DNA of 64,000 nt from Neodothiora populina (GCF_041146345.1 NW_027191413.1:1860001-1924000); one strand, 5' to 3'; counted from the first letter of the stretch, positions 5,664-44,974 are shown. The notes: generated by a model not told the origin, from the letters alone. A program made the numbers and translations.

Positions 5664-7936
5664 TCACAATCCAATCTCCTTCCTAAACACATCAAGAGTA
5701 GGCTCTCTCCCAAGAAACTCCTTCAAGGTTTTCTTTTCATCCTGGCTAGCGCCTTTCTCCAGTACCATGTGTCGGTATCGACGACCTACATCAACATTCA
5801 TCGGATCTGGTTGAAACGCTGATTGAAAGAGGTCTGCCGAGAAGACTTCAGAGCTACAATTGGTTGCGAGATCAGTATACCTTCGCGCTGTTCCATCGCA
5901 CAGCGACTTACTATTTGTACCCATAGTATCCAGCCTCGTTACCCCATATGAAATGCGATGTTCTGACATGGCCAAATCCCCAAGAGTATCCTGCACCAAG
6001 AGCTTCTGGCCCAGGCACCAGCCCCAGCTCGGCATGCTTTTGATTATAGACCACGGACGGATCTACAGCTGCAGTCTTAGAAGCGCTGTCCTGGCCGTAA
6101 ATCTCGAGATCAAACTTCGCCAGTGCAATCTGCCGCATATGCTCCAGTGGAGCCGTCACATCTTTCGCGTGGACAAGACTTTCTGCCATGTCTTTGGGAA
6201 GATGCATCGGTGGTAGCTGTCCCTGCGCTTCTGGGTTCTCGTGCACCCATGCCTGACTATAATCAGCTGAGAGGTGTGAATAGTGGCAAGAGATTTTCTG
6301 TAAGATGCTCGGTATCCAACACCAGTGCTCAAGCATTTGCGAGGGCATTTCTACAAAATCTCGTGCTACCTGGTGGCCATGGAAACGAGAGTATTGTGTT
6401 CGAGACAACAAATCATGCATGCCTGCTCTCGTCAAAAGTGTCTTGTGTTTAGAGTGCGTGTGACAGTCTTACCATGGCCCAGTTCATGGAAGAGCGTAAT
6501 CAGCTGCCTATGTTGCAGCAGGCTTGGCTTTGTTGCAGATGGATAATTTAGATTGCAAATGAGAGCTGTAGAGACATGGTGTCTCCTACCATTTCTGTCT
6601 GTGAAACCCTGGTGAAGCCAGTAAGTCATAGCAATTCCGCGCCTAGTGAGCTCCAACGCACAGGATTGATGTTGAAATTGGCATTATGTCCATATTTCCC
6701 CTGTCGTGGGTAGATATCAGTATAGAGGTAACCATTGAAGGCGCCGCCCTCTGCCTCGTTGTCCCAAACACTGAACAGCCGAACATCCGGATGCCATGTG
6801 AGCTTCGAGTGTGTCTCCGAGCTCACTTCCACAATGACGAGACCGAAGAGTTGTTCGAATATCTCGAGCATGCCTTCTATCACTTTTTGAGCTGGAAAGT
6901 ATGTTGATCCTCTTTCCATGTCAATCTGATGCTGTTGCTTTACCAATTGCTCATTGTAGTAGCTCACGTCCCAGACATAGAGGTTGACAGGTGTGGACTT
7001 CATTTCGTCACGCTTCAACTGCTGCAAGGCACGCATGTGCTCAATAGCAGCTGGTCTTAACCCCTCATGAAGATCATCAAGGAAACTCTCGACGCTTGAC
7101 TGCGATTCCGCCATCCGATCTTGAAGTGCATACTCCACGAAATTGCGGTGGCCGAATAATCTTGCCATCTCGTCACGTAAGATAAGGCAGTCATTGAAGA
7201 TTGCGACGTTTGCTGCCGCAATGGTCTGATCACCGATGAATACTCGTCTTCGCGTATCTTCTGAGCGAGCATATTTCAGAAGAGCAGTAACATCAGGTTT
7301 GTTGAAAGTGAGACGTCTCAGCAGTCCATCCGAGCTAAGCTGTAAACCATCCACCACAGACTGAGGGACTCCAGCCAGGTCCTCCTGATTGAACCAGAGT
7401 TCATCGTCTTTCTCGCCGAGATTCCTCATGAAATTTTGAATGCATTCTTGGATCGTACTCTTGATCGAAATGAGCTTCTTCCTCTCGTGACCAGGTGCGA
7501 GTCCGAGACCTCCATCAAGGAAGCTCCGGTGCGTCTTTTCGAGATATCGTTGAGATTCAGGATCCAGGGATGGTGCTTGCTGGACCACACACTGAACTAA
7601 GAGGAAAAGGTCTTCTCGAGCATAGAAGTCGGTCCAGTACATATCGAAGAGCTTCGAGGCATCAGAGGCTGCTTGACGTATCTTCAGATCCGGAGAAACT
7701 CCATTGAGTAGTGCTACGTACTGAGCCACCGAATCGCGCTCTCCTTCGATATAGGCTAGCTGTAGAAGGACATTGTCAAAGGTAGCCGCTTCTCTTGTGA
7801 TAGACGAGCATATCCCGTCGATTTGTTCTTGGCACGAGATGATCGTGACTTTAGCCAGCTCGACAATCTCCTCCGGACTTCGATCGTAGGTCAAAGGCGG
7901 CTGAGGGGGCTTCAGGCAAGACGATTGTAGCAACAT
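5664..7936 (-). CDS. Peptidase M3 metallo-oligopeptidase (thimet oligopeptidase / saccharolysin-like); 4 exons
   Basis: Spliced zinc motif LFHELGHGMH, plus DFVEMPSQMLEHW, YLYTDIYPRQGKYGH and AGYYGYKYSEVFSADLF; C-terminus FLGREP. Confidence 0.92.
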
Positions 7937-8599
7937 TATTTCCAGCTGGTGGTTGAGCTACTCGTACATATGAACAAGCATGAGTTTACACCTCGCGTGC
8001 AACATGTTACATTTTTATAATATTGCCGGCATGCGTGATGCCATTCGACCTGCACTTGCAATTAATCACATGCATACAGGTATGCATTTGTGCATCAAAG
8101 TGGGTATGAGGGGCTAATCATGATAGGTCATGTGCCATAGGAATGGTATCCACCGCAGTCGCTTATGGGAAAGTTGTAGTGCCATGGTCCCTGGTCCTAG
8201 ATGAATCCATCGGGGCCATATTAGTGGCAGATGGATAGAGATAAGGACATGTCGTCGGACGTTTCATGTCTGATATCTTCTCAGGCAGTCGATGGACGTT
8301 GCAGTGGACCTTCCTCATGCAGCTTTTGACAGCACAGACTACAAACCCACTCAAATCCAGTCGGCTTACAGAGAAGCGTGAAGTCTTGATGGTTTGTACA
8401 AGAGCCCGAGTTCTATCGGGTCCTAAAAGTAGGATGCATAGCATCGTCTATCTACAATTATGTCTACAAAGCATTGTAACTAGTAGTACTCGAACGTCTA
8501 GGTTCGTAGAATAAGAAGTGAACAGGTGACGTCACTGTGTAAAACGCCTTAGTAAAATAACCCAACCTCGCCCTGGCCATGCATTCTATGATGACTCGC

Positions 8600-10006
8600 T
8601 TAGGCATGCGATACCAGATCCAAGCAGCCATCGACAATTCCTTCAAGTTCTTTCACCCTGTTCTCTAGACGGTTCTTCTCCTCCTTCATATATGTCCAGA
8701 CTCGGACATCCACGTTACAAGATGTACCTTGAATGCTACTACCTCTCGAGGCAGGTCGTAGCGTGGGTTGGGCTGGTAGATCCCAGCGTTTCGGTTCGAA
8801 AACCGGACTCATGGGTCTAGAAGCGATGGACTCGGCAGTGGTGTCAGTCTCAGTGTCTTGGTAGTAGTCGCTTTCGAAGCCACTATCTGAAGCAATGGAA
8901 GACATCGTACTGGCACTGCCAGCGCTGTCACGGTAGGGTCTTCGTTTCGGGGTAAGATGAGTGGAAGAGGCATCGCTCTCTTCTGCTCGTCGTTGTTTCT
9001 CGGAAGCCAGTTCCTGAGAAATGATCTCGCACGATTTTCTCTGCTCATTTGCCTTTTTACCCATTTCATCTAGCTGTAGCTTCAGATGGCGGGCCCTTGT
9101 GTCAGCTTCCTCTGCCTCCTCTGCAGACGCCTCTCGCTCCTGTCTCGCCGTCTTTAATTCTTGCTCTTGCTGCCTGTAGGCAGTCTGCAATCTTGTGATC
9201 AAAGTCTCGGCGTTTCTCAGGAGATTGGCGAAAGAGGCGGGGTCTTCAGGGTCGAGAGCGCCGTGGGGAAAGAGAAGGGTCGTTGCGGGTGACATTAGAT
9301 CGGGATCTGCCGAGGACTGATCTTGTGTAGGTGCTGTGTCTCGTGGCTGTTGTTGCTTGAGTCCTCCGAACCAACTGAACTTCTTCGGTTGACTCGGTGG
9401 TGGTGGTTGAGGTTTGTTTTCGGTGTGGTTTGAGATCCGCGAAGGTCTGTCGCCACCTGTCAAAGCAGGCTTGTATTCCATGATGGGGTTGTAGTACTCT
9501 CGATCCTCGTCTTCAACGTCTTCGTCGAGGCGGTCGATGGACAATCTCCCGGTAGAATTGCTACTGAACAAGGGAGTGAATGGACGGCCCTTTCGGGTGC
9601 TGTCTCCTTCGATGGCTGAAGGACTGAGAGATGGAACGAAACTGGCCAGGGACTTGGCTCTTTGGTGGAAAGACTTTGTTCGTGCAAGGCCGGCGGCAGC
9701 TGGTGGACCTCTGGCACCTCCAGAGATGGCGTTGAGTAATTTGCTTCCAAAGCTTTCGATCTGACGGGTCGAGTTGCTTCTGGACAGCGATGATAAGACT
9801 GTGGTACTGCTAGGGGTGATTTTATTGTCGTATGCTGTGACTTCAGAAAATGCTTTCGAATAATTATTATAATCGGTAGCGTGATAGTCGACGGTGTGAA
9901 CTCGAGAATGAGAAGGCTGGCGCAGAGAAGAGCTGCGAGACGGTAAAGACAAGGCTGTTTCGGCAGATTTGCTCATCGTGCGTCCACTTTCACCCTCCGG
10001 AAGCAT
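8600..10006 (-). CDS. Uncharacterised fungal protein, Ser-rich disordered N-terminus with coiled-coil regions (468 aa)
   Basis: Single 468-codon ORF with heptad-like segments (NAETLITRLQTAYRQ...LKLQLDEM; EEKNRLENRVKELEGIVDGCLDLV). Confidence 0.75.
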   Translation of the reverse strand: MLPEGESGRTMSKSAETALSLPSRSSSLRQPSHSRVHTVDYHATDYNNYSKAFSEVTAYDNKITPSSTTVLSSLSRSNSTRQIESFGSKLLNAISGGARGPPAAAGLARTKSFHQRAKSLASFVPSLSPSAIEGDSTRKGRPFTPLFSSNSTGRLSIDRLDEDVEDEDREYYNPIMEYKPALTGGDRPSRISNHTENKPQPPPPSQPKKFSWFGGLKQQQPRDTAPTQDQSSADPDLMSPATTLLFPHGALDPEDPASFANLLRNAETLITRLQTAYRQQEQELKTARQEREASAEEAEEADTRARHLKLQLDEMGKKANEQRKSCEIISQELASEKQRRAEESDASSTHLTPKRRPYRDSAGSASTMSSIASDSGFESDYYQDTETDTTAESIASRPMSPVFEPKRWDLPAQPTLRPASRGSSIQGTSCNVDVRVWTYMKEEKNRLENRVKELEGIVDGCLDLVSHA

Positions 10007-10192
10007 GTGATGTGTACCTTTTACGCCCCGACTTTATGTCAAGTCACGCGGTACTACACCGAAGCTGTGCACAACACAACCAAGACTTTGATAGCGCAAG
10101 AGTGCGTTTTGGATCTGTTTCGGACCTGTGTCTCTGCAGCGCAGATATGTCCACTGCAATCTGAGGCGTCCAGTCGACTCTGTTCTGTACAG

Positions 10193-10223: not shown

Positions 10224-11349
10224 CCCGCTCTTCGTTGTTGAGAGGGTCGAGCAAGATATCCCGGGATGCAGATATAGACTTCGTCCCCAGGTCCGGACCG
10301 TCGAGAGAATCCCTCGAAAGTTTGGTAGAGGTACGGGAACCTTAGTTTTTGGTTGATGTGCAAGGTGCTGTATGTTCAGGATTCGATGCCACGACGAACA
10401 CTTGTCTTACTGTAGTTTCGGATGTTTGACGGAAGTTGAGGAATCTCAGGGGGATCTTTCACAAAGTAAAGTGCTGCATAATAAGCGAAGTTTCATTCCG
10501 TATTCCTTGTCTATCTTTTAATGACTGACGTCGATCGCTAAAATTGAGTGGCACTCAAAACGCGTGGCTGAGCAGCATATCGAGAAGAGGCTGGGGAAAC
10601 CGGTTGCCGTTGTGGTGCCCATATAAACGGCCGTCCCGACCGACCCGCGCCTAGGGCACCTTACTTGTACACCTTACCTTACCCACCTTGGGCTGGTTCG
10701 CCTCGGTTTGCCTCAATGCGACCGCGGCTAGGCTGGCTACAAGTGGTCGGTGGTAACGTGCCAACCCATCGACTGTGACTCGAGACGCCTACCAAAATAG
10801 CCCCGCTCGTCGCGAGGTTCGAATGCCACGTGCTGGAAGCTGCAACGTCCGTCCGTACTCCGTTCTCACTTGTACACGGACGCGCCTTCGCCTCCGCATC
10901 TTATTGAGTCTAGCCTGCCTAGAGGTACAGTATGGGAACTTCTCAGCGTAGGTTTCGTGCTACTCAGTACTCAGCGGCGACCTGACGACTTCGTTTCGAT
11001 TTTGCGCGTCAAACATGTCTCTTGGCCTGACACCACTTGGATACGTAAGAACTATAGTCATGGGAGCATTGGAGTAGAGACATACTGGCGGTCAGCGTCC
11101 CAACAGTGCAACATTGACGCGACCATAAGCTCGGATCCTGGTAAACATATACTGTATGCTGCTCTCTAAGCAAAGGCATTGATCACCAGACGAACGATGA
11201 TCCAGTTGCCTCCTCCGACTGCCAAAAACTGTTGACGCTCAGGTCTATTTGCATAAACATGCCGACGCTTCTCCAAAGTTCGTGTGCGCCAAGGTAAACA
11301 ATAATGCACCACGGCAATACATCGACCTCCGGTGCCTTTTTTCCCTCAG

Positions 11350-13184
11350 TCAACATCTACCATCTTGGTCATAGTGCAGTTTCTGAGTAGAGGAAGACAC
11401 TTCGTGATCTAGCAAAGCACCGAGGAGCTTGGTAGAACTGGCCTCGGCCTCTTCAACCATGATTGCTGACTGAGCAGATCGTATCCTTTTACTGTACTGA
11501 AAGTGCATGCTCCGCTGGATCGGCAGCTTGTATGCTGGAAGATGCTCCGACAACGCTGCCATGGGCTCCGCGAACTGACACATTCTTCTTGCTGAAAGAT
11601 CAACGTGCCACCAGCAGTTCCCACGTAGCTTTGGAAGGTCGTGCGTCTGCACCACCATCAGATCAGACCTAGTCGGTGCGGCCGAAGAAGATGATAAAGC
11701 TTCATCACGCGTCATTGCCATAATCGAGTTGCGATACCCGACATACCGCTCACGCAGTCGGTTCGCTTCTCTGCTGTCTTTCACAGCTGGACGCAAGTTT
11801 GCCTCGATGTCTCTCTAAGTCATCCGAGGATCTTCCGCAAGCCATGCTGCGATAAGCCAACCCTGCACCGACCTGGGGATATTGGCCGGCAGCACATGGT
11901 CAAAGGCTCTGCGTGTCCACCCGTTGGCATCCTGGATGGTGTTGCCGAGACTGTCGACCAGATCAGGAACGTGGGCTTTGCTCACTGTCAAAGGCTCTAG
12001 CATTGCTGCTGAAGGTGGAAGACAGTCTGGACTCCACTCTGCCTGACTGGGCACAAAAGACATGCACTCTTCCCCACCGCTACTGATGTCACGCGTATGC
12101 ACTAGAAGGCATTACGATCTCTCCAATGGTATGTGTCGCTGATTGATGACTCACCATAAGCCGTACGGCCAAACTTCCTCTGGTTCCACAGCACATCTCG
12201 AGCATAGTGCAGCATCGGTATGTCAATGTCATCACGAGGCGCGACTTCCTTGCCTTCCAACCACATGGGCTCGTCCGGAGTATAAGAGAGCTTCAAGTCA
12301 GATCTCAGTCCTCCAATATAAGCTGCCGGTCCACAGATTGGTTGCCATGGATAGAGGCCCTCCTGATAGAGTGGCCCAGGGACCCATGCCAGGTTTATAT
12401 CTATCGTCTCGATGTTCGGTCTCTTCATTCTCTCGCTGTACACATCGATAGGCTGCATGAAGCCACGACTGCGTGCCTTCAACTTGTCTGCCAATGTGTG
12501 AAAGTAAAGAGACTGACCCGCAAAATTATACATGTCAATTTCGAAGGCTAGTTGGTTCGTAGGACCTGTCAACATCTCTGTATACTCCCGAGAGCCGTTG
12601 ACAAAGGCGTCGCGATTCTCATCACTACTTTTGGCAGCTCTTGCAAGTGGTGCTGCGATTGCGTTGCGCTCACGACATGCCGCTTTAGGCCTCCGATCTG
12701 CTTGCAGGATGTTGCTGTAAGGGCTGCCAGGAGAAGCCTTCGCCTTATAATCTAACTGTAAAGGCTGTGGCATCCCAGGGTATTGTTGTTCTGCACACCT
12801 ATACTTTATTGCGTAATTGGTGGATAGATCTGACAATGGTGGTCTTGCTACCACCATTTCAGCTATCGGCGCAGATTTTGTGCTTAGACTGTGCACACTC
12901 TGTGGCACATGTGTATGAGGGCGGCCTGTGGAAGGGTTGACTTGCAAAATTATCTGATCAATATCTTGTCGTTTACGCTTTCCGGAAGACAGGTCTTGGG
13001 ACATGGCTGTCTGGCTTGGAACCCAGTATGGAGCTTCAAAGACATTGGAGCCATTGACACTCGAATCCTGTAATAGAGCAGCTCTTGGGACAGAATCGCT
13101 AACATTCATGAAATGACGACCTGCATTTCGAGATTGGTGCCATGCTGCAATGAATTGCTGGTATTTCTCTTTCTCGGAAACCAT
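11350..13184 (-). pseudogene. Two-exon uncharacterised fungal gene interrupted by one in-frame TAG (593 aa if recoded, 438 aa if truncated): either a pseudogene or an RNA-edited/readthrough gene
   Basis: ATG at 13184. A 53-nt intron at 12154..12102 (GTGAGT...TAG) fuses ORF 13184-12102 to ORF 12102-11815. The TAG at 11817-11815 is followed in the same frame by RDIEANL and ORF 11796-11350, reading ...VQGWLIAAWLAEDPRMT*RDIEANL... Confidence 0.7.
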
Positions 13185-14027
13185 AGCTCAACTCCAAGGA
13201 GGACTTCGATGACTCGGTCACACTACGGGTCAAGACCGACGGTCACTGCAGCTTTCGTCAACGACTCGAGCGGAAGAGCGTCAGTGAAATGCTGTTCAAG
13301 CAGAGATCAGATGCTCGCAGATGACGTTACAGATTGTGTGAAGCAACAGGAAGGTGCAAAGGACCTAGGCCCGGGACACATACAATGCAGGTGCATAGGT
13401 ATTTTGGTCCTACAATAGAGTCTCGAGCAACATAGGTTGATGCTGGGACACGCCATCATTAGTCCCTTAGGTGCAACCAGCGAGAAGATGCTCATTGTTA
13501 CGATTCTATGCGTCGTCACTATAGGCACTCCTCTGCCGTAACACGCTGCGCGTTCGTCGACTCGAGTTGGGTTTGAACACGAGATGGGCACATTGTTGCT
13601 TCATTGATAAATCTTCATGCGTATGGAGAGAAAAGTCCTACATTATGAGGTGAACCTTGACATCGAACTCGAAATCTTAGGGAGCAGTTACTGTTAGTCA
13701 GTGGCGAACACGAATCTGTTCCCAGAGATTCTGGTCCTGGTCATTATCATTAGATTATTAGGTAATATGTCACTGATGGCTCTTATGCAATGTCAAGATG
13801 GTGTACTCAAGGCCTCGAATGCGGAGAATGCCTTCAAATTCAGATTATAACATGTGCAGCCCCCAGCATGCTTCTACATCTGTTCGGTTACGACGCCACT
13901 CAACCAAGAAACTATCAAATGCAATGTAAGGTATGCTCCCAATCAAAGCAAGACGGAGGATTGCATTGAGCGCCTACAGGCGGGTCGTTACTATGTGGTT
14001 TGGCTTTGCTGGCTGACCATGTCTCTC

Positions 14028-14275
14028 CTATTGAGCACCAAATCCGGCCATGTCGAGATCCGCCTTTTTGAGAAAGGCCCAGAAGCCATATCCCCGAATA
14101 CAGTCTTTATTGAACATCGTCAATAAGATGAGACCTACCAAGGTGCATGCCTGTGTTTCTGTTTCTCAAGGTTATCAACATATACTACGATCTATATTAA
14201 GTTATTGAGGTTATTGATGCCATTGCCAGTTATTGAGATCACTTTACTACACTTTTATTAATATCTATCTATTGA
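14028..14275. promoter_or_regulatory. Cluster of seven TATTGA motifs (MAT1-1-1/alpha-box-like sites) in the STE3 promoter
   Basis: CTATTGAG at 14028. TATTGA at 14108, 14203, 14212, 14231 and 14270. Reverse copy TCAATA at 14120. Confidence 0.6.
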
Positions 14276-14375: not shown

Positions 14376-15983
14376 ATGAACGCAACAACTCCTCCAAGCA
14401 ACATTGTGCCTGCAGGGGTCTTACCGACGACCGATACTCTAACACCAGCCGGGATTGCTCTTGTGATTCTGGCGCCTGTGACCGTCTTGATCGACATCCC
14501 ACCACTGGTATGGCATATCCGCAACCGTAACACAGCCGCCGGCAGCCTCGTAGTCTGGACCGTCCTCCACAACTTCATCAGCTTCATAAACGTCCTCATC
14601 TGGCCGACCGACAACTTTGAGAGCAAGTACAATGGCGAGGGACTCTGCGATGTGGAGATCAAATTCATGGTCGCCAGAGCGGTGGCAATGCCTGCTGCAA
14701 CGCTGTGCATTATTCGCGCACTTGCCAACGTCATGAACACCAACAAGAACCTTGCCATTCCGACGGAGCAACAGCGGAGACGGATGGCAGTCATGGATCT
14801 GGTCTGGTGTCTGGGTCTTCCGGCAATCATGATGTTCTTCCACTACATCGTACAGCCGAATCGGTATTTCCTTGCTGGTGTATCAGGATGTCAACCATCG
14901 ATTTGGGCGAGTTGGCTCTCGGTCGTTCTGATCGGTCTGCCTCCTCTGTTGCTTAGTGTAGCAAATGCTTTCTACGCAGGTAAGCCATGATCGACTATTT
15001 TCTTCTCGGTCAGGCGTGAAGAAGCTAATCGAAGATTTTAGCTCTTGTCATGTGGCGTCTGTTCAGATATCGAGCGGCGTTTCACAACATCCTAGCCAGC
15101 AGCAACACGACCAAATCCCGCTTCCTAAGGCTCTTCATGATATCTCTTATATTGACTCTTGTGCTATTTCCATATGAGATTTATGCCCTCATCACCGACT
15201 TGCCACGCCATGGAACCAACGGTGGCTTCACATGGAGCGAAGTCCACAACAAAGATACCTGGAGGATCATAGTTCTGTACCACAGCACCGTGTTCTACGA
15301 TCGCTGGACAAATATAGCGTGCGGGTTCCTTTTGTTCATACTCTTCGGCATGGGAAGAGATGCGCAGAAGATGTACGCGCGATGGTTGTGTCATCTTGGC
15401 CTCGGGAAGGTGTTTCCATCATTGGTCCGAAAAGCTGGACACAATATCGGGTCTTCCTCACTTCAGGCTTCTGCGAGCAGCAAAGCAAAACTGATCATCA
15501 AGAACAAATTGAACACTTTCTCGTGAGCAGTTCTCTTTTCGCCTCAATGCAAACTCAGACTTACATATCGATAGATCAAAAGATTCGACCCTGGTGTCAA
15601 GCAAGGACTACAACCACATTGACCCAACCGATCCAACACCAGCGAAGACTGGCGACAAACATCCCAGCAAGCTGCTACCGAGATTCTTCGCCGCTTTTCG
15701 AAAAGACAGCCCATCGTCCACCGAAGACGACGAAGAAGCCGCACCAATAAGAGGAAAAAGCGACACCTTTGCGATGACGGAAATGAGCACGCATGGACAC
15801 GACGAAGCCTCATCTCTACCACCATTTAGGCGGGTGGTGGCGACGACCAGGTCAGAAGTCAGTGCGGACGCGTGGAGCGATAGGGTCGTCGGCCAGGAAG
15901 TGCTGGCGCAGAGAAACATGCTGTTGGATAAGGGAGCAGTGGTCGTCAGGAAAGATATCAGGCGGGCGAGCGAGGCTTGTTGA
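14376..15983 (+). CDS. STE3: a-factor-type pheromone receptor (STE3/PRE1 family GPCR); 3 exons
   Basis: Seven hydrophobic segments and the motifs PPLVWHIRNRN, NVLIWP, GEGLCDVEIK, HYIVQPNRY, GC, SRFLRLF and FILFGMGRDA. Introns 14980..15041 and 15523..15574. Confidence 0.93.
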
Positions 15984-16445: not shown

Positions 16446-18586
16446 TCATCGCTCATCCTCATCTTCAGATAGCTTAGTAGTGAGGTAAGCAGCGACCAGG
16501 GTCGCGCACCCACCGAACCTTAGCACCCATGCCACACTGTCATCTCCAGGGGTACCACGAGGCTTCTGCAGTACTTTGAATATGACACTCGACACCAAAG
16601 TCGCGATGACCTGCGGCGCTGCTATCGCCACATTGTGGATACCCAGGACCACTCCGGCTTGGTCTGCACCTTCCGCAGGGTCTTTTCCGTGTGTGAGCAT
16701 TTCGCCCTCGGCAGTCGCAGGTGCGGGTATCCGGCGTCTTCGGATGGCGTCGCGCTTGCTGATTTCTGCGGCGATGAGGGCAAATGGTGCCCAATTGGTC
16801 AGAGCCCAGGGAATACCGATGAACGCCACGAGGATTGTCGCAGCGGTGGTGCTGCGTACGAAGAAGGTGATCCATGTCGCAACAACGAACATGAGGTGCG
16901 AGAGGAACCATGCACGCCGCAATGTGAGGCCCTTTATTTGTAGACTGGGTATGCTGTTGCGCAGTTTTGTGAACAGGCTCTTTGACTTCTTGGAAGTAGA
17001 TGAGAGGGAGGATGAATTTGGTTGGTAAGCAAAGTAGCCGTTTGCTGACATTGAACCTGGAGTGGTTGGTGTAAATGTCTGGGATCCACGCAGCGGGGTG
17101 TGAGGCTGAGGTGGCGGCGGCTCGAAAGTCGGGGCTATCAGAAGCGGAAGCACGATTGTCGCTGCGAAATTGGTGATGGCAAATATTAGAAGGGCAAAGG
17201 TGCCCATACGAGTGGCACGTTCCCATGTCTGATCGATCTCCTCAGGCGTCATGTGCGGATTTTCCTCAAAGTAAGGCTCGACGTATATCTCGCCAACATA
17301 AGTGGTGATATAGAACAGAAACGGAAACCAGCCGATCCATGCAAAGAATTGTACTTGGCAGACCTTGCCAATCTGAGGAGGGAGGCGGCGTACGGACTTG
17401 TATAAGGAGGCAAAGAAGGCAACAACGCCAGCTTTTTGTTCTGGAGGATCGTCTTCAAGACGAGGGTCGCGTTCACTGACCGTAGCACAGGATACTGTGA
17501 CGGTGACGACAAGGGCTAGACAAGCTAGGACACACAACACCTTGAATTGAGTATTGCCGAAGAATGGCATGTAACGAGGAAGATTGACGTATCCAGACAG
17601 ATAACCAAGGATGTTGCCCACACCAGAAAGCCGGGAAGCCCATGCATTCGCATCGTTCTGTTGGTGTGTAGGAGCGTTGTCGACTATGAATGCGCGGATA
17701 CCCGCCTGAACTATTTCCAAATGAGCTTTTGCGTTCTCTGACGCTCTCTGTTACTTGTTGTTGCTTACTAGTGTTTATTGAAAAGTCTAATATGTAAATG
17801 AAAATAACTGCTACCACAATAGCCGTATTCTTGGTGGCCGGAGAGTCGGGCCCGGCGCCGAATAGAGAGAGGACGTTCGCGACGATTTCCTTCGTCCATG
17901 CTAGGCAGATCAGTGATATTATGGTGCAGAGTGCGCCGCCGACGACGAACGGCCTTCTCTTGCCCCATTTGGATCTACAGCGATCGCTTTTGATGCCAAC
18001 ATAGGGTTGGACGAGAGTCCCGGAGAGTGGACCAGCGATCCAAACAAAAGCCAGGAGACTTTTGCTTATCCCTAGACCGAGAAGGTAGGGCTTGAGATTC
18101 GTCAGCTAAGATCGCGAAACACATGTTGTGATGAGACTGCAACATACCGACCCATTGGACAGCTCAACCGACCAGGCAATCTGTAGACTAGATAAAGAGT
18201 CAGTGAGCATCGAGGATTATGGCAAAGTCTGAGTAGTATATACGGAGACAAGATTTGACCTACCCTCCAATGGAAAGTGTCAGGAGAAAGAGGTACCAAC
18301 TGCTCTTGGTCTCTTCCGGTTCGACGTCCCACTCATCAGACGAAGCAGGCGATTGCACATTCGAAAAAGCAGGCGGAGACTCGATGTCCTCCCTCGCCGG
18401 TGCTATCAACGGAGAGAACTCATCCTGTCCTCTACGAGAGTCAATTGAAGCTGGTCGTTTGCCAATCTCACCAGCAGACTGCGGACCTGAAGGTGATTCT
18501 TGACTCAATGCTGCGAGCTTGGGCTGGTGTGAAGATCGATCGGCTTGGGAGGCAGGTTGTCGCAACTCCCCTTCTGGCGTGTTCAT
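16446..18586 (-). CDS. SUT1: GPH/MFS sucrose-maltose:H+ symporter (S. pombe Sut1-like general alpha-glucoside permease); 4 exons
   Basis: Spliced motifs LTLSIGG-LQIAWSVELSNG, WIAGPLSGTLVQPYVG..SDRCRSKWGKRRPF, QFFAWIGWFPFLFY and GVVLGIHNVAIAAPQ. The start codon is the first in-frame ATG and is uncertain. Confidence 0.88.
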
Positions 18587-20115: not shown

Positions 20116-22363
20116 ATGTCTGCCGCACTTCAAGATGTCGTCTTCGAACTCATCCGTATGTATCGTGCAATTCATCGTCGGACTGATTGTCATGATGCGC
20201 CCATCTAATTCTCGGATACTGATATGCCTCGTTTTGTACAGGGCGACAAGATGACGTTGATCCAGAGGGTCAGTACTTTGCGCACCCATCACATCCATAG
20301 ACACGACCGCTGTATAAAGAATGACATTGTATTGATTGACAAGCAGAGCCCGAAGCTGGCCAGAAAGAGATATTCGCCTCGTGGTCCCTCTTCATCCTCA
20401 TCATACTCCTGATCATCGCCCTATTCACCAGCTACATGCTACAGATGAGAAAGATCCAGGCCGTCCACGAAACAGTCCTTTCCATCTTCGCCGGAATGGT
20501 TGTCGGCCTGATCTTGCGCCTGACTGCTTCTCAATCCGTCTTGGGCGCCGTCAGTTTTGACTACCAGTTCTTCTTCAATCTTCTTCTGCCGCCAATCATC
20601 CTCAACTCTGGATACGAACTACATCAAGGCAACTTCTTCCGTAATATCGGCTCCATTCTTACGTTTGCCTTTGCGGGTACTTTCATATCAGCCATGGTCC
20701 TGGGCGTGATTCTTTACCTTTGGACCCGCATTCCACTTGAAGGCCTCGACATATCTTTTGTCGAGGCAATGTCCGTTGGAGCCACTCTTTCCGCTACGGA
20801 TCCCGTTACAATTCTTGCTATCTTCAATACCTACAAAGTCGACCCTCAGCTGTACACTGTCATCTTCGGTGAATCTATCCTGAACGACGCCATTGCCATT
20901 GTGCTCTTCGAGACTGCGCAAAAGTACCGAGAGGGCGCTGCCGCTGGTCACTTGACCATTCTGAGTCTGTTTGAAAGTATCGGCGTCTTCCTACTCGTCT
21001 TCTTTGGCAGTTTGGTCATTGGTCTCGTTGTCGGCATCGGGACCAGCTTGTTGTTGAAGTACACACTGGTCCGAAGATTTCCGAAGATCGAGAGTTGTCT
21101 CGTTCTTCTCATTGCATATGCCACCTACTTCTTTTCTAATGCAGTACACATGTCTGGTAAGTTTCCGTTCGTAAAATGTCTCCCTAATCGACATCACTCA
21201 TGCGCTATACAGGCATCGTCTCTCTATTGTTCTGTGGTATCTGTATGAAACATTACGCATACCACAACATGTCACGCCGGACTCAGCTCACCACCAAATT
21301 CATATTCCAGATCATGGCTCAATTATCCGAGAACTTTATCTTTATCTATCTCGGACTCTCATTGTTCACTGAGGCTGGACTGGAGTATAAGCCATTGTTC
21401 ATCCTCGTCACAGTCGTCGGCATCTGTGTCGCGCGTTACTGCGCTGTGTTTCCCTTATCGCTGGCCATCAACACGGTCATCCGTTACAGGGCTCGCAAAC
21501 GGGGTCGCGACGTGGCAGACGTCATTCCAAAGAGCCATCAGGCTATGCTCTTCTGGGCTGGTCTGCGCGGTGCTGTCGGTGTCGCTCTTGCCGCTGGTCT
21601 GACCGGACCAAATGGATTTGCATTACGCGCGACTGTTCTCGTCGTTGTCGTCCTGACTGTCATCATCTTCGGGGGCACAACCGCGCGTATGCTCGAGATA
21701 TTGAACATCCGCACTGGAGTCGTAGATGAGATCGACAGTGACGACGAGTTCGACATTGAAGTGGTCGGTGGTGGGACTTACAAGAAAACTTCTGGCAAAG
21801 GGTTCGGGCACACTCCTCGACCCAGTGCCGCGTCGGCCATCACTCTCCATGATGTCGGGACCGACGGCGCGCAACTGAACGGAAGAGTGAGTGGCACAAT
21901 CAGAGGTCACCGAAACAGCTTGTACAGCACTGGAAATGCCAGTAGTCCACCCATCCGACCTGGCGACGGGTTGCGCAGAAACAGCAGTCGTAATGCGATG
22001 CGAGATCAAAATACTGCAGAGCAGGGGCTACTGTACGCTGAGACTCAAAGCGGATCTGTTTCTGACGACGAAGCAGCCGGTCTCGACCTGCCTCCCTCAG
22101 CGCGCCGGTCTCCCAGCAGAGATACCTTCACCGACACCAGCGAAAATGATTCATCATACCTCAGCCAGCCGGCAGAGCCGATCCCTAACGATACGGAGCC
22201 AAGTCACCTCACAGCTCGCGGGGCATTGAGTCAGCTGTTCAGCGGCACCACCGAGGATGCTGCAAATATGTTCTCTCGCTTCGACGAGGGCTTCATCAAA
22301 CCGCATTTGCTTCTTGATCCAAGCGCAGGCAATAGACATGGTCATGGGCAGGGTGGCTCTTAG
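20116..22363 (+). CDS. NHX1: Endosomal/vacuolar Na+(K+)/H+ exchanger; 4 exons
   Basis: Motifs FFNLLLPPIILNSGY, LSATDPV, FGESILNDA and WAGLRGAVGVAL. Two short 5' exons (MSAALQDVVFELI / RRQDDVDPE / EPEAGQKEIFASW) are joined by canonical introns. Confidence 0.93.
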
Positions 22364-31373: not shown

Positions 31374-32504
31374 GCTGCCGCTCTTTGTGTTGTCTGGATA
31401 TAGCTACAAGAGTCCCCATTGCGACCATCGTATAATACTTATATAGATATAGCCAACTGCTCCTGATATCCTTGATATTGAGATACTGGTATGAAGCAAC
31501 GGCATACAATCGAGTAGACATGGTATCTGACCTGCCTAAGGCAGGAAAGCCTCGAGCGGTCTAGTAATTTAACGATAAGATATTGTATAAGGTCTTTTGG
31601 AGCAACTGCCCGTGGTTATCAAAGATGCATGCATGAGCGTGGGGTAGATAAACCTTGCATAAAGTATGTTCTGTACCTGGCTAATCACACTGGTTACAGT
31701 ATATCACCAGGTCGATCACGCTTATGTGCATGAAGAGGCCGCACTGGAAGACGAGGGATATTCTTCAGTCATTTCTCCAGAAGCTTCAGCTGTCTTTTCC
31801 CCCTTTGCATACTTCTCACCATTCGTGAGATGGCATAACAATCCACTATCGATGATGATGGAATGGCAGCGCAGCTGCGATTCAGGCTCGGACGCAAAGC
31901 AAGCAGCGGAGAATTCTCCTCGCATTGCAATCAGGAGGACGAGATGCAATGGTACGATACTGCCCTGTAGTACTCCGTATATTATTGCGCACTCTAGAGG
32001 ATATGTTGAGAGCGCCAATGAGAGCGCCAAAGAAACTGGAGTCGATTGACCGCCTTAATCAATCATGTTGGACAACACACTACGTGAGACATATTGTAGC
32101 ACCGTCCGACAGCAGAGTATGTCGTAGGGCTACCACGGCCCACGATCTGAACATTGGTGGCCGGAGAAATCGACATAGCCACACATATCGAGTCTTTTAC
32201 AAGAGCGCAAAGGTAATTGCAATATGCACTTACTTTACTAGATCAAGCAAGGCGTGCCAACCAATCTCCACACGGCTCTGAAGGTTGTCCCGGCGTTGGA
32301 TTGCGACCTACTTCTCCATCATTTACATCATCATCACTGACTTACGCCGAGCCGCGTTCCTCCAGCCGCGTGCCTTGTTTGAAGGTAGCGAATGGGCCAA
32401 GTTTTCCACGCGTTCAACATTCTTCGTTAACAAAATGCCGTTGACTTCCTGTGTAGGTTTGCTTGGGACAGTTCCTGCAGGTCCACTCGTTCTTTGACCT
32501 CAAC

Positions 32505-34304
32505 ATGTATACTTATAGTAATATCCGTTGCGCAACGGTTTTCGTCGCAACTACTCTATTCTCATCTACTCTCGCTCAAGATGCTGTTTCTGTCACACCT
32601 GCAGCCAAGGCGGCGCAAGCCTCTGGTTTGTCGCAGCAGCTCAGTCGTTCATATGCAGGCATGGGCATAGAGCCATCGAATTTGTTTTCATTCACTGGCG
32701 GAGATGAACCCAATCAACTATCTATCAACTTGCTCCAGAACCTGGCCAACTACTCAGGCGCTCCACCGCATCTGCGCATTGGTGGAAACACTGGTGACTA
32801 TATGATTTATAATGCATCATACAAAGGCTTCGATTTGCACCAGAATCAATATTCTACTAGTCAAGGCGGCATGTCTTCAAACCAGTATATTTTCGGGCCC
32901 GACTATCTCAAAGCTCTGGATAGATTTCCCACGGATACTCCTATAACGTATGGTCTGAATCTGGCATATGAAGGGGCTGATTACGCCGATATAATCGCCG
33001 CCGAGGCTGCAGGTGTACTCGACGAGCTGAACAACACTAAAGTTGTGTCTTTTGAGATTGGCAACGAGCCCGATCTCTATCTCGAGAACTGGGACTCCCT
33101 CAGGACTGGGCAATGGGATGGTACGACGTATACCCAGCAATTCTTGGATAGAGCTGGGATTGTCTATCGCCGTGTCCTCCAGCCGCGGGGCATGCCTTCG
33201 ACCTTCTTCGAAACCGCTTCCACAGCCTCGACAATATCAACGACCTTCACTGTCCAAGATCTCATCGATGCAGGCATGACTGCGGCAGTGAACGGCAGCA
33301 AGTTCATTTCGTCCTGGAACCAACATGACTATTTCTATTTCATCTCAGTCAGCACCTACCCCCTGACATTGGAAGCGATGATGAACTTGGATCAAACCGT
33401 CAGCCAATTCAAGTACTGGGCGTCGGAGGTTGCAACGTCCTTGAAAACGGGTTTACCATACAATCTGCGTGAGATGCAGAGTGTTGGACCAACTGGCCAG
33501 GATGGTGTCAGCAATACTTTTGGCGCCGCTCTCTGGCAGCTCAACTTCTTCTTTTACGCTGCAAGTCTCAACATTTCGAGCGTGCAGATGCACATGACAG
33601 ACAACTCCTTCTCGGCCCCATGGCAGCCTGGAAACATGAACAACGTAGGTCCCAACATTAGACCGACCTACTATGCATATGCAGCTTTCGCTCAATTGCT
33701 CGGCGCTGGAAATGGAACCACTCAAATCGCTCCTCTTTCTCTCTCGTCAGCTATGCCGAATGTCAGAGCTTACGCTGCATATGAGCAAGGGTCTCTTACT
33801 TCCGTTGTTCTTATCAACGCAAACCAGGCAAATGCGTCTTCAACGTCCAAGGCAAATCTTACCTTTGCCGTAGACTTCTCTGCGTTCGCAGGTCAAAAGG
33901 TGTTCCTTTCTTACCTCACCGCAGATGGAGCTGACGTCAAGTCCAATGCAACCTGGAACGGCATCAGTTTCGAGCAGGACAGCGTCGGAACCCCTAGCAC
34001 CTCGGAACAGAGCGCACAGGGTATTGATATCGACAGCAACGGCATCGCAACAATCCCTGTACGAGACAGCCAGGCTGTAATTGCAAGAATTGGCTCGGCA
34101 TTGGGGTCTTCTGATGAGACAACTACGCCGACATCTTCGTCAGGTAGCAGTACCACGCCCGCAGGGTCTAGCGGTACCAGCTCCGCCTCCGCCTCTGCGG
34201 CTGCTGCTTCAGCTACCAAGGCTTCGGGATCTATCGCAAGCTCCTCTGCTTCGCTGTTGATGATCTCCCTAGCCCTTATGTTCTGCTTCTTTATGGGCCA
34301 TTAG
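32505..34304 (+). CDS. GH79 beta-glucuronidase-like glycoside hydrolase, secreted, probably GPI-anchored
   Basis: Signal peptide, LRIGGNTGD, FEIGNEPDLY, a second Glu in LREMQS, GVSNTFGAALW, an S/T-rich linker and a hydrophobic C-terminus. Confidence 0.88.
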   Translation: MYTYSNIRCATVFVATTLFSSTLAQDAVSVTPAAKAAQASGLSQQLSRSYAGMGIEPSNLFSFTGGDEPNQLSINLLQNLANYSGAPPHLRIGGNTGDYMIYNASYKGFDLHQNQYSTSQGGMSSNQYIFGPDYLKALDRFPTDTPITYGLNLAYEGADYADIIAAEAAGVLDELNNTKVVSFEIGNEPDLYLENWDSLRTGQWDGTTYTQQFLDRAGIVYRRVLQPRGMPSTFFETASTASTISTTFTVQDLIDAGMTAAVNGSKFISSWNQHDYFYFISVSTYPLTLEAMMNLDQTVSQFKYWASEVATSLKTGLPYNLREMQSVGPTGQDGVSNTFGAALWQLNFFFYAASLNISSVQMHMTDNSFSAPWQPGNMNNVGPNIRPTYYAYAAFAQLLGAGNGTTQIAPLSLSSAMPNVRAYAAYEQGSLTSVVLINANQANASSTSKANLTFAVDFSAFAGQKVFLSYLTADGADVKSNATWNGISFEQDSVGTPSTSEQSAQGIDIDSNGIATIPVRDSQAVIARIGSALGSSDETTTPTSSSGSSTTPAGSSGTSSASASAAAASATKASGSIASSSASLLMISLALMFCFFMGH

Positions 34305-35258: not shown

Positions 35259-36772
35259 TTCTCCAGCCTGATCTTGAACCACCCCCAAGCATAGCCGAAC
35301 GCCACCCTCCTCCATATCTCACACAACAAGACGTGCAGAGCGAGAGACACACACGAAGACTGATAAGAAATCAGATAGGCCACCACCACGGCTCGGCGGC
35401 GAAAGAGCTGATCGAGCGCTGCATAGCCTTCTACACGACGCTGTTCCAGGACTCTGCGAAGCTGACATGGTCGCAAGTGCGGGACGTGGCCACGCGGGAG
35501 TTTGAGCCGAGGATCAGGACTAATTGGCCTGCGTATTATGAGGAGATGAGAGGTGAGGACGCTTTGTTCTGACTTTTGTTCACTACTGCTTTTTCGTGTT
35601 GTTGTCTATGCTACTGTTTGGGTGTCTCTGGATGTTTGGGATTGGAGTGGGAGTGGTTGAGTAGTGAGACAAACGACGATTGTGTCAAGAAGCGTATGGC
35701 TGATATGTATATCCAAAAACACAGGTATAGCTGCGGGGGCAGGCAAGCAGGTCTCGGACATCATAGCGCTGAACGTGCGAACCGAGATAACTTTCGGCCT
35801 GTTCAGCGACGGGTGCACTGCGCTTTCGTGGCGCGAAGGGGAGGCTAGCTTCCTGGCTCAGAATTGGGACGTGAGTTCATCCCAGCACTGCACCCTTCTT
35901 CTCTCGCTCTCTCTCTCTCCTCCCGTGTGCCCTCAAGTAGATATCCAGCGTCAGCTTGTGAGAGCTACATAGCTAACGACGTGGCTGCACGCAACGCACA
36001 GTGGATGCGCCAACAAAAAGAGAACCTCGTCATCCTAACCATCGAGCAAGCGGGCAAGCCGACGATCAAAACCGTCGCAGAAGCAGGTATGCTGGCCAAG
36101 ATCGGGCTCAATAGCTCTGGCGTGGGCGTATGTCTCAATGCGATCCGCGCAAAGGGTATGTATCCCAGTCGACTGCCGTGTCATTTGGGTCTGCGCATGG
36201 TGCTGGAAAGCGAGTCTCGAGACGAGGCGATTGCGAAGCTGGAGGGGTTTGGGATCGCCTCGAGTTGTCATATGCTTGTTGCTGATCGGACTGGAGGGAT
36301 TGGGGTTGAGTGGTGAGTTCCCAGACTGGTTTCTTTATATTCTGAACCTTTCCGCTTCCTTGTTTCTCAAGAGAAAGACAAGTCGATAATGCACCAGGCT
36401 GACCAAAGACACAGGAGCCACATCGACGTTGCGAAGCTGGCGATGAACGATGCTAACCAGGTGTTCCACTCCAACCACTTTCTGCTTCCACACACAGGCG
36501 TCACAGAAACGGTCTGGCTTGAGGACAGCAGAGTGCGCATCAAGCGTGTCGAGGAGCTGTGCTCGAAGCTCGAAGGCACACTTTGCCTCCGATCCGTGCA
36601 AAGCATTTTCACAGATGAGAGTAACTACCCGTACTCGATATGTCGAGCGCAGGAGCAAGGAAATCACTCAGAGACGCTGTTTAATATTGTCATGGACTTG
36701 ACGAACAGTGCGGCCAAAGTGATCGAGGGTAGACCGACTGAGCCTGAGGCGTTTTACGAACTTTCCTTTTAG
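35147..36772 (+). CDS. Peptidase C45 / acyl-CoA:6-APA acyltransferase-like Ntn hydrolase (IAT-like); 5 exons
   Basis: Spliced CSGTPFE-IGHHHG, LNVRTEI, DG/CT autoprocessing site, AQNWDW, EAGMLAKIGLNSSGVGVCLNA, HSNHFL and ETLFNIVMDL. Confidence 0.88.
35229..35258. repeat. (AGC)10 microsatellite inside intron 1 (35183..35374) of the C45 gene
   Basis: Direct reading. Confidence 0.95.
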
Positions 36773-36845: not shown

Positions 36846-38392
36846 CTAGTTTGTCAGTACAATGTCCTCGACTCTATAATGGTCTGCGACAATTCTGTAG
36901 AGATAGCTGGGTGCATGACCGCCCCTGTTTAAACACCGTCAGCGATTGCGTTCAAGGAAAGTCACAATGCAAGAGACTCACAAGTTCGTGATGTAGAGAT
37001 CCACCAGATCGGCGCTGACGTAATCGTAGATGGGGTTGACGACCTCGACATTCTCCACCACATCGCCTTCGTCGAATCCAATCACCTTGCCTGGGTCTCC
37101 GTACTCGACAAGCTCCTCCATATCGAACGGATAGACCGGACTGAGCTTGTAAACACCACTGACCACAACAACGGGTGTCTGATGCACCTTTGCCGCCTGA
37201 GCGATCGTCAGAGCACCAGCAGCTGCGATTAGCCCTCCGTTGGCCAAGACGGTGTGAGGTGCGAGAATGACCTTGTTGATGCGTGACATGAGCGCAAACA
37301 CGGCCGAGTCTGGAATGACGATGACTGTGATACCCATGGAAGTCAGCGGCTTCCATCTGTCCTCGGGCTCGTCGTCGTCGTCGTCTTTCTTTCCACCAGT
37401 CATAATCGTTGCATGGGTGTCCACGTGGTCGTTGGGAAATGCTTCAGCATGAACAACAGTAAACTTGCGCTTTCGTGCCGCGTTGATCAGGAACTTTTGC
37501 ACAGTAGTCGATGATGTGTGAGTGAGGATGATTTCGTTCGCGTGGATGTGCTCCAGCGCCGAAGCGGCAATCTGATCATCGACAACTTCTAGTTCGTCGA
37601 GAAGCTCCTTGATGCCATCAATAACCTCGGCTTTGATGTCCACCTTAGGTTCCGTTGGTGGAGTGGCAAAACCTCTCGTCGAGGAAGCGGACTTGTGCAC
37701 TGGTGATTGACTACCAGGAGGTGGAGTTGGGACCGGAGAAGCCTCATCTGGATGCGAAAGAAGTCCGAATAAAGAAGTAACGTGAGGTCCAGGAGTAGCA
37801 TAAGACGTGTGAGAGCTCAGGAGCGGTGGTCTAGCATGACCCATGCTTGACGAGTCAGAGCCTGCGGGCGAAGCATCACGGCTCGCCACTTGCATGTGAT
37901 GTGGTAGTGAATTGGCCTGGCTGAGATTAGAGAACCCCGACAGGCCAGGTCGTTGGAAAGAGTCGTTGTGGCCGGGCTGTGGCGATGTGGGGGCTCCAGC
38001 ATCGCTGTCGGCGCCTTCCTCGACAACTTCGCGGATGAGACCCAAGACTCGTCGAACAATGTTTCCGACTGCCATTTCTCGAGGCTGAGCCGCGATCAGA
38101 CGCTGTCCGACCTTTCGCACACGCTCAATTAGAGATCCGGCATCCCGCACACGAGAAGTCGCCACAACTCGCAGGAGGAGCTGTGTCGTCGCGATAGCGC
38201 ATGGCCTTGAGTTCCTGATCTGACGTCTCTTCAGTAATCTTTATTTTGTTAGTTATGGCAACTATCAACATAGCAGATATAAAGATCTTCGTACGAGATG
38301 AAGTGCTCGATAGAGGTCTCCACATCGGCATGTTTGAGGGACTTTAGAAATGAAGATAATCCAGGCTGTGCAGACATGACTGCAGCGGGCAT
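36846..38392 (-). CDS. GCD7: Translation initiation factor eIF2B beta subunit; 3 exons
   Basis: Motifs AQPREMAVGNIVRRVL, ALEHIHANEIILT, IPDSAVFALMSRINKVIL, VYKLSPVYP and LYITNL-GGHAPSYLYRIVADHY. Confidence 0.93.
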
Positions 38393-43800: not shown

Positions 43801-44974
43801 CTGATTCTCTATCGTAACGGCGACACTCGATGAGTGCTATTTCCTTGGGCGCTGATGCTCGCCACACAATCTCGCCTAGCTCGACGCGCTCAAGAACAAT
43901 GTAGACTTTCTTGCGTGCGGGGTCGTCTATGACTTCCAGCAAAGCGACGATGTTGGGATGACGGGCCTTTTTCAGAATGGCAACTTCTTTCTTGACCTTG
44001 TCTTCAGCGTTACCGAGTTTGCCGAGCCTGCGCTTTTTTGAGTACCTCTCAACAATCTTTATTGCGACATACTCATTGGTCTGAAGATTGCGACCCAGCT
44101 TGACCTTTCCGTGCGTACCTCTACCGAGCTCGTCGATGATTTCATAGTTGTTGATCAGTTTCCGTCCCGAGATGGGATCGATGTCGACATCCGCTATATG
44201 AGTTTCTTTGGGTGCCTGACGATGGGTGAAATGTAAGAATGGACTGGCGTAAAAGCCCTGTTCATCCGGACCCAGATCAGACGGCGGCGTGGCCGGAGGA
44301 GCAGAGGGGTTGAAAAGACCGGGAGTGACAGCGGGCGAGTGACCGGCAGACCTCGTGGCAGATTGGTGTAGCGATGCAATAGCCTGGCGGAAAGTTTGTG
44401 GTTGAGCAGGATGATAAGTCTGGGTGCGCAAAGTAGGCGGCAGATGGGGCGGAGGGTAGCGCTGTTGTTGCAGAGCGGAAAAAGCCTGGTTGGGATAGGC
44501 GGGTCCCGAAGACGATGCAGGGTATTTGGAGGTGACGATTGAAAGGTTCGCAGGAGGATGGAAATAATCAAAGTTACGCGCAGTCACTGTTACATTGCTC
44601 TGTGTGCTCGCTGTCGACTCGTGTGACTGATCTCTCTGCACACCGGGTCTTCCCATAATGTCCGGGTAATCTGCCACGCGACGCATCGCCTCGGGTGATG
44701 TGGTATCATTGGTCCGTCCGCGTTCGGTTGAGGATGAAGAAGTCGCCGAGTAGGATGAGTGCGAGACAGGCGAAGAAGTCCGACTGTGTATCGACCGAGG
44801 CTTGAAGTATCCATTGTCAGAGGCTCCATCGTTCAAGGCATCAGAATGCGTCGACCGCGGAGGACTGGTGGAAGTAGGTCGGGAGGGGTTGTTTGATCGC
44901 GGTGTCTGCGTGCCATCATACCCGCTGCCGGGTCTTGATTGTGTCTCGGCCTCTGGCCCATGCTCTTCTTCCAT
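40832..44974 (-). CDS. SAK1: Snf1-activating / CaMKK-family Ser/Thr kinase (Sak1/Ssp1-like), intronless
   Basis: INNYEIIDELGRGTHGKVKLG, VAIK, KEVAILKK, IIHRDIKPPNLL, ISDFGVS, LAKTVGTAAFYAPE and DVWALG. First ATG is at 44974; the ORF track starts at a GTG. Confidence 0.9.
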   Translation of the reverse strand: MEEEHGPEAETQSRPGSGYDGTQTPRSNNPSRPTSTSPPRSTHSDALNDGASDNGYFKPRSIHSRTSSPVSHSSYSATSSSSTERGRTNDTTSPEAMRRVADYPDIMGRPGVQRDQSHESTASTQSNVTVTARNFDYFHPPANLSIVTSKYPASSSGPAYPNQAFSALQQQRYPPPHLPPTLRTQTYHPAQPQTFRQAIASLHQSATRSAGHSPAVTPGLFNPSAPPATPPSDLGPDEQGFYASPFLHFTHRQAPKETHIADVDIDPISGRKLINNYEIIDELGRGTHGKVKLGRNLQTNEYVAIKIVERYSKKRRLGKLGNAEDKVKKEVAILKKARHPNIVALLEVIDDPARKKVYIVLERVELGEIVWRASAPKEIALIECRRYDRESEGLFDDEEAEAIDRAILDEARARRLKQQRRQLRKLRRQRLAGGSGPEAWSFEFGGDSDDDESDIERGSKMSTTTEETSMEALSRVATPAPRAESEPLDLPTPIQSSAPTLEIPRLDQFADSANLEGTMYGSYEGVDILRTPSLASSVQSFGARGLSHYGASNKYASAAIEILDSDIHPELLHVPCMTLPAARVAFRDTVLGLQYLHWQGIIHRDIKPPNLLQTYEHRTKISDFGVSYLGRPINDEQAENLSESDAQDFDEAKELAKTVGTAAFYAPELCYTDMPLDGETIPSVGKAIDVWALGITLFCMLFGRTPFVDSEYVVMRRIADEDIYIPHKRLRPVDPRPKSRPSSHGRYFPPAASGRRSEYELVYEELDDSLLDLLHRLLIKDPEQRITLEEVRHHPWVLQDIQNKELWLSDTDPSRQAQGKKIQVSKEELQDAVVPVKLVERIRSGLKKTVGGLMSGLGRASSATARPRAPSTSGSNASSVPSPITTPGGEGRRNSLRGDESIFTALQASREREHPLAQSVTASPIQSPGDTTATTPTALSPDFKDISRSSDTLWANSERSRAAMSTATSARTIRQGGTMSSPKVGSPPSSPNLLSLSETSTVSNLGGLLSGAGRRILKTVRDRSAAGRSVDETEYYTNREPTDPMDPHAGPSIAVNNMQASGHVNPPQALQCFATAGSAPTSAVGSALTSPVHSRSHSVAGHRDSLSLAQKASSASLAARRMLDAGMAPKGSSKSPRMIANDSTEEGFRRAEDEYLRKRAKESRERASFGNNVRPMSPTTCPPSPDDEIEYRRNVKLHQEGVSSGPSMETSPTSRTSSGLPIMTPSSSEDRFRTGTWMTFSNPSIPSVTTVDSDAATDDRKTLVVGGEPLTVGDAMKLRPFSNLEDDGYVGDDAIESEEDEDDYEDSSDDDEGLQMVRRRSMPRSIRQSFGSSSLKSQHRQRRETGSSAFSKKSSRSGSNNTMKKVISNEDDGNKSQERS

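Follow-up and report, generated by a model that had tools for sequence, protein, structure and literature searches.

A single in-frame TAG at a tryptophan codon of a gene next to STE3 in Neodothiora populina: probably a young nonsense allele, less likely an edited stop

A minus-strand gene adjoining the pheromone receptor gene STE3 of Neodothiora populina is open from start to end except for one in-frame TAG. Does this codon mark the recent loss of the gene, or is it corrected in the mRNA? The first-pass annotation of the window, i.e. the whole stretch of 64,000 nucleotides analyzed here (GCF_041146345.1 NW_027191413.1:1860001-1924000), favored the second answer and proposed that UAG is converted to UGG (Trp) by A-to-I editing. 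Its guess that the organism was dothideomycete-like was correct: N. populina belongs to the Dothideales (Dothideomycetes), and PMC8375349 describes the species from cankers on Populus tremuloides stems.

Reading the minus strand, we found that the three open reading frame fragments picked out earlier are one gene, and every coordinate given for them was right. The features of this gene are as follows:

11350..13184, minus strand: read-through reading frame, gene AAFC00_002981 (Neodothiora populina); 593 codons plus final stop, one intron
12155..13184, minus strand: exon 1; ATG at 13184-13182, 343 codons plus 1 nt; equals the N-terminus of deposited protein P0019
12102..12154, minus strand: intron of 53 nt, GTGAGT...CTAG; junction TAY-V-HTRD in P0002 and P0019
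11818..12101, minus strand: exon 2 up to the stop; block FVPSQAEW...LPP...LEP...AFDHVLP...GWLIAAWLAEDPR
11815..11817, minus strand: in-frame TAG, codon 439; candidate editing site is the A at 11816; the 3 closest relatives all have W
11353..11814, minus strand: open stretch 3' of the TAG, 154 codons; homologous to relatives (RDIEA..., NCWWHVDL...MCQ), 40-43% identity
11350..11352, minus strand: final TGA of the read-through frame, from the sequence reading

The spliced reading is 1782 nt long, corresponding to 593 codons and the final stop, with the TAG as codon 439; exon 2 contributes 94 whole codons before it, or 95 when the junction-spanning codon is counted. The canonical intron called in the first pass (12154..12102) is borne out by use of the same junction in the deposited proteins, and the lone TAG at 11817-11815 is indeed followed by 154 sense codons without frameshift or second stop. 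Two deposited proteins, both named hypothetical protein AAFC00_002981 from Neodothiora populina, contain ...RTAY-V-HTRD... and end ...AEDPRMT at the TAG. The longer one (P0019, 438 residues) equals the first-pass model exactly as far as the TAG, indicating that the deposited annotation begins and splices the gene in the same way and ends translation at the TAG. The shorter one (P0002, 301 residues) is identical to the window sequence, ends at the TAG and clusters with the P0019 isoform.

In the 462 nt 3' of the TAG, the coding frame contained no stop, versus 4 to 10 stops in each of the other five frames. A single stop between open stretches of at least 90 and at least 150 codons occurred 5 times in the window; of 20 shuffles, 17 contained no such instance and 3 contained one. 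The open frame around the TAG is more than chance. Note that one of the other four instances, the TAG at 35846, belongs to a non-coding frame of an acyltransferase gene (AAT family).

The first-pass annotation had proposed looking for the TAG in sequencing data. We found it in the contigs of two sequencing runs, X1 (depth 6) and X2 (depth 39), with no differing letters across the whole gene. Because the assembly may itself derive from these runs, which would then not be independent of it, their agreement rules out an assembly slip more than it gives independent confirmation. X1 retains both the 53-nt intron and the STE3 intron and was therefore read as DNA; its use as RNA data was rejected on the same grounds. 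Its coverage has gaps at 10500-11022 and 13834-14213. A search for sequencing runs of any kind listed three, X1, X2 and X3, with no RNA run among them; their contigs are without joints and hence carry no splicing information. X3, a run labelled as a different organism, contains a 178-nt contig that is identical to window 13126-13251 (126 bases, spanning the start codon) and then continues into unlike, GC-rich sequence.

A search with exon 2, the TAG being read as W, against 1.84 billion representative proteins returned 17 matches, with P0002 as the best. At the protein level, the codon column of these 17 homologues holds W in six cases, Y in four, P, I, M, A and N in one each and a gap in one; one protein ends there. 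The first pass had noted a resemblance to a fungal motif with an aromatic residue at the stop position, and W or Y is indeed present in 10 of the 17. It had also suggested an alignment of orthologues at the stop codon. All three of the closest relatives (P0003, P0021 and P0004; 44-47% identity) have W at this codon, again at the protein level, and are open across it. They read AEDPRLQWRDIEAH, AEDPRLQWRDIEAH and AEDPRIQWRDIEAR, versus AEDPRMT-stop-RDIEAN in the window. When relatives were aligned to the window by tblastn, the matches crossed the stop uninterrupted (P0003 at 12081..11458; P0021 at 12054..11392), and no second copy of the gene was detected within the window.

The conserved block of the family is FVPSQA.W...LPP...LEP...G.P.R.F.H.LP..I...V.GW....W..D.R, followed by the stop/W codon and then.DI..RM. 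A second motif further downstream, NCWWHVDL...MCQ in the window, is common to distant members, and by eye the 343 residues of exon 1 share a motif with the longer members P0009 and P0014. One family member comes from Zalaria obscura, likewise of the Dothideales. Pfam assigned no family to the window pieces or to any of the aligned family members (0 of 18), the PDB sequence search gave a best E of 0.66, Foldseek found no match at E<=0.001, and VIA-align found no usable fold (best Z 2.6). OmpR-type or winged-helix DNA-binding domains account for several of the weak VIA-align rows, at Z 2.1-2.5, which is much too low for a fold to be assigned. The neighbour cluster in the ESM Atlas is labelled Ascomycota, and the Atlas gave no family. 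A search of metagenome contigs for related loci yielded 229 pattern matches and no relatives, and an exact search with 26 nt adjoining the TAG had no matches. Protein searches returned none of 5297 candidates for "longer" forms, none of 35 for "shorter" forms, and four "near" forms including the window's own protein. The gene family is Pezizomycotina-restricted and fast-diverging, with no known function.

We then compared protein identity on the two sides of the stop. Before the stop, the window protein is identical to the three close relatives at 35/62, 35/62 and 36/62 positions, and the relatives are identical to one another at 37/62, 32/62 and 37/62. After the stop, the corresponding values are 44/110, 46/110 and 48/111 (0.40-0.43) for the window protein and 51/110, 42/109 and 46/109 (0.39-0.46) among the relatives. 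Judged by these identities, the 154-codon tail is no more diverged than would be expected of a working gene. Neither further disabling lesions nor faster divergence at the protein level was found in the 154 codons after the TAG, although a very young pseudogene would show none yet; the lack of decay is thus as compatible with a very young mutation as with continued selection.

The first-pass annotation had pointed out that a nonsense mutation here could be of the RIP type. TGG>TAG does correspond to CpA>TpA, but the RIP indices of the gene (TpA/ApT 0.59, (CpA+TpG)/(ApC+GpT) 1.50; window, 0.67 and 1.25) are normal, and nothing else points to RIP. With normal indices and a single copy in the window, a RIP origin of the TAG was rejected.

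In an AlphaFold2 model of exon 2 (mean pLDDT 69.8, 18 sequences), the most confident part comprises residues ~41-130. Residue 95, the TAG, is placed between a helix at 80-89 and helices at 95-100 and 109-125, in a block with pLDDT of 76-92. The stop is thus predicted to fall within the best-modelled stretch, after the first of three helices, so that truncation would cut a domain and not a mere tail.

One homologue bears on the site in another way. P0006 (132 residues, from a 1055-nt contig; 40% identical to the window protein) aligns to window 12069..11821 and closes with ...WRIACWFREDLRIQ, exactly one codon short of the W/TAG column. An intron would make the next codon begin with GT, and this end therefore cannot come from an intron; either a stop codon follows or the contig ends here. 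In the former case, the family would hold a second stop at one site. Such a pattern is reported for edited sites in PMC10776026, which describes edited stops in Sordariomycetes as having often arisen several times independently at one site. If the contig simply ends there, the coincidence of this end with the W/TAG column may be due to chance.

The sequence context of the TAG was given correctly in the first pass as UU[A]GAG. In Fusarium graminearum, the editing preferences described in PMC9600606 are C/U at -2, U at -1, A/G at +1, G at +2, A/G at +3 and A/G at +4, with +2 the least important. The site, UU[A]GAGA, has the preferred base at five of these six positions (-2, -1, +1, +3 and +4) and a disfavoured A at +2. 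Note that U at -1 and G at +1 are given in any TAG. Hairpin-loop placement was assessed by folding with 30 nt on each side of the A, as in PMC9600606, and the following structure was predicted:

11802..11829, minus strand: predicted imperfect RNA hairpin, CCUCG-G-AUG-A-CUU / AGA loop / GAG-A-CAU-CGAGG; the A of UAG is the first loop base

A fold of 41 nt had a predicted energy of -9.2 kcal/mol (z -1.36), and 20 of 200 shuffles folded as well; at 61 and 101 nt the z values were -0.90 and -2.62, respectively. Within the window, hairpin-loop placement of the A was also seen for random TAGs (140 of 400) and for context-matched TAGs (46 of 137). Since about a third of control TAGs have this placement, the cis features discriminate poorly. 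On our own reading of the model, opening the weak U-G and U-A closing pairs would give a 7-base loop, UUAGAGA, with the A in third place, like A34 of an anticodon loop.

Among the papers cited here, sexual-stage mRNA editing is reported only in Sordariomycetes and Pyronema (PMC11156358, PMC11087585, PMC10776026), and N. populina, as a member of the Dothideales, lies outside these lineages. PMC11087585 describes the editing enzyme as Tad2-Tad3 together with the sexual-stage factor Ame1, with Ame1-Tad3 binding having evolved in Sordariomycetes and residues at the Tad3 interface being decisive; it takes editing in Pyronema as an independent origin and flags lineages with Ame1 duplication for study. 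The range of reported editors and the Sordariomycete nature of the Ame1-Tad3 contact make the prior for editing in a Dothideales fungus low. In the passages cited from PMC11156358, genome-wide editing was not found in Aspergillus nidulans (Eurotiomycetes) or Botrytis cinerea (Leotiomycetes), and which classes of filamentous ascomycetes edit their mRNAs is called still undetermined; PMC7306014 describes pseudothecial fungi as not having been examined for editing by 2020. Our literature search found no report of A-to-I mRNA editing in Dothideomycetes or pseudothecial fungi.

About 70 genes of F. graminearum need UAG>UGG correction according to PMC11156358. The TAG stops at its edited sites are described in PMC10776026 as deriving mainly from TGG and as having arisen within Sordariomycetes, and its edited pseudogenes as mostly Pezizomycotina-restricted. 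AAFC00_002981 resembles these PSC (restorative) editing pseudogenes (PUK1, AMD1, FgAMA1, FgRID and FgBUD14 among 71 genes; PMC10776026, PMC11156358) in its single UAG, intact frame and ancestral Trp, in the U at -1, the purines at +1, +3 and +4 and the A in a predicted hairpin loop, and in being restricted to filamentous ascomycetes, with no known function and a second member that may stop at the same site. Unlike them, its host is a dothideomycete outside the reported editors, and the gene is known here from sequence alone; the likeness is further limited by the frequency of the same cis features among control TAGs in the window. Stop-loss editing of the Sordariomycete DBF2, as described in PMC13123824, likewise involves a UAG in a hairpin loop and Trp after editing. 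However, in DBF2 the canonical stop is edited and a short destabilizing tail is added, whereas correction of the internal stop of AAFC00_002981 would restore 154 conserved codons.

In our assessment, the TAG of AAFC00_002981 is probably a young TGG>TAG nonsense allele. A recent G>A transition would have turned the ancestral Trp codon TGG into TAG, where the ribosome would terminate, in line with the deposited annotation. This would leave a protein of 438 residues lacking the last 155, and with the cut inside the best-modelled domain the most likely outcome would be loss of function and an early-stage pseudogene. What was directly observed is the lesion and where it lies, the W of the relatives, and the lack of further lesions. 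W at the codon in P0003, P0021 and P0004 and the end of both deposited isoforms at the TAG speak for a nonsense allele, as does the mutational target: of 62 stop-creating transitions available in the gene, 13 are of the W>TAG kind. Loss-of-function alleles are common in fast-diverging families without Pfam or PDB relatives. As in an early nonsense allele or unitary pseudogene, a single G>A affects a Trp codon, the gene evolves fast and is lineage-restricted, and the annotation takes the codon as the stop; unlike in a typical decaying pseudogene, the downstream part carries no further lesion and has not diverged in excess. We count against a nonsense allele this absence of second lesions in 154 codons, the tail identity matching that among relatives, the five favorable neighbours out of six, the A in the predicted loop and the end of P0006 at the same codon. 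The main competing reading is that N. populina corrects UAG to UGG by stage-specific A-to-I mRNA editing. A tRNA-type adenosine deaminase would convert UAG to UIG, read as Trp, to yield the 593-residue protein, most plausibly in the sexual stage, the gene being off otherwise. Such editing would suit a UAG at an ancestral W, TGG being the main source of edited TAGs in F. graminearum (PMC10776026), a neighbourhood whose sole misfit is at the least important position (PMC9600606), and a family as Pezizomycotina-restricted as the edited pseudogenes of that species (PMC10776026). It would also suit the lack of decay behind the stop and the end of P0006, as well as the 1191-nt upstream region shared with an intact STE3 (see below), which would be compatible with mating-stage expression. 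Reviews leave some room for it, given the undetermined range of editing classes (PMC11156358) and the pseudothecial fungi not examined by 2020 (PMC7306014). Against it, the loop placement recurs in the control TAGs, the hairpin is not unusually stable at 41 and 61 nt, two of the preferred neighbours are inherent to any TAG, and the known system is traced to a Sordariomycete ancestor, with no editing found in Eurotiomycetes or Leotiomycetes in the cited passages (PMC11087585, PMC11156358, PMC10776026). Given the low prior for the class and the unspecific cis features, we rank the young nonsense allele first and editing second, the latter being unlikely on the present evidence.

The remaining explanations would make the TAG a working stop, a leaky one, part of an intron or an artifact. 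That the 438-residue protein is functional as a shortened form would agree with the two deposited isoforms and with the retention of all 343 residues of exon 1, including the motif shared with P0009 and P0014. We consider this improbable: two of the three helices of the best-modelled stretch and the NCWWHVDL...MCQ motif would be lost, the relatives that reach the site all continue, P0006 excepted, and an open homologous tail of 154 codons behind a working stop would be a coincidence or very recent. Translational readthrough of UAG by a near-cognate tRNA, giving some full-length protein, would explain the open conserved frame behind the stop, but only that, and we give it a very slight chance. 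Known leaky readthrough contexts include UAG-CARYYA and UGA-CUAG, and UAG-AGA-GAC is unlike either, though this comparison is a weak test. The TAG might also serve as the AG of an in-frame acceptor and be spliced out. Two in-frame candidate introns end at 11815, one with donor GTGCAG at 11868 (54 nt) and one with donor GTGAGC at 11985 (171 nt), but splicing of the former would take out the most conserved block (VQGWLIAAWLAEDPRMT), splicing of the latter even more, and the relatives are all colinear across both, with no gap. GTGCAG moreover departs from the usual fungal donor, GTRAGT. A precedent exists in FgBUD14, where editing is combined with alternative splicing of a stop-holding intron (PMC11156358). 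An intron removing the TAG was nevertheless rejected on homology and is the least credible of the explanations considered. A sequencing or assembly error is unlikely, with two runs in agreement over the whole gene. A mutation acquired in culture by the sequenced isolate is conceivable, since the assembly may have been built from these same runs; records exist for one isolate, and both members of the protein cluster come from the same genome. Taken together, error and culture mutation are about as improbable as readthrough.

Should the young nonsense allele be the right reading and editing be false, AAFC00_002981 would represent the truncated allele of a gene that was once longer, and the deposited proteins, of 438 and 301 residues, would each show only part of an ancestral product of 593 residues. 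Were editing true, this gene would be the first such case in Dothideomycetes and would place restorative editing in a third class of filamentous ascomycetes, implying either a further independent origin or one older than currently held; P0006 would then mark a parallel case, the second edited stop of the family. In either case, window position 11816 offers one concrete dothideomycete base at which cDNA can be compared with DNA when asking whether the class edits. On a genome-wide scale, editing would show itself if TAG clearly outnumbered TGA at conserved Trp codons, as G>A transitions create the two stops with equal frequency.

STE3, which the first-pass annotation had placed next to the gene, was confirmed by Pfam PF02076 (E 1.4e-56 and 8.2e-25 for its two exons, which match the two halves of the model). 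It is transcribed divergently from AAFC00_002981, with 1191 nt between the two ATGs. Together with STE3, we list the other genes of the window that were recognized by Pfam:

14376..15526, plus strand: STE3 pheromone-receptor gene, apparently intact; exon 1 14376-14979, intron 14980-15041 (62 nt), exon 2 to the stop at 15526
5911-7957, minus strand: M3 peptidase
20340-22363, plus strand: Na/H exchanger
32457-34304, plus strand: GH79 C-terminal domain protein
35700-36770, plus strand: acyl-CoA:6-aminopenicillanic-acid acyltransferase family gene with introns (PF03417)
36978-38240, minus strand: eIF-2B family protein
40832-45049, minus strand: large protein kinase

The open reading frames at 8600-10033 and 16446-17750 had no Pfam match. 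Further single stops between long open stretches were seen at 10034-10036 (minus strand), 36314-36316 (plus strand) and 59149-59151 (minus strand), the one at 36314 overlapping a GTGAGT donor. At 13806-13890, in the upstream region shared by STE3 and AAFC00_002981, the contigs of the deep run split into several short alternative records, some with a one-base gap. The segment contains a run of five C, and the breaks probably reflect a length variant or sequencing noise.
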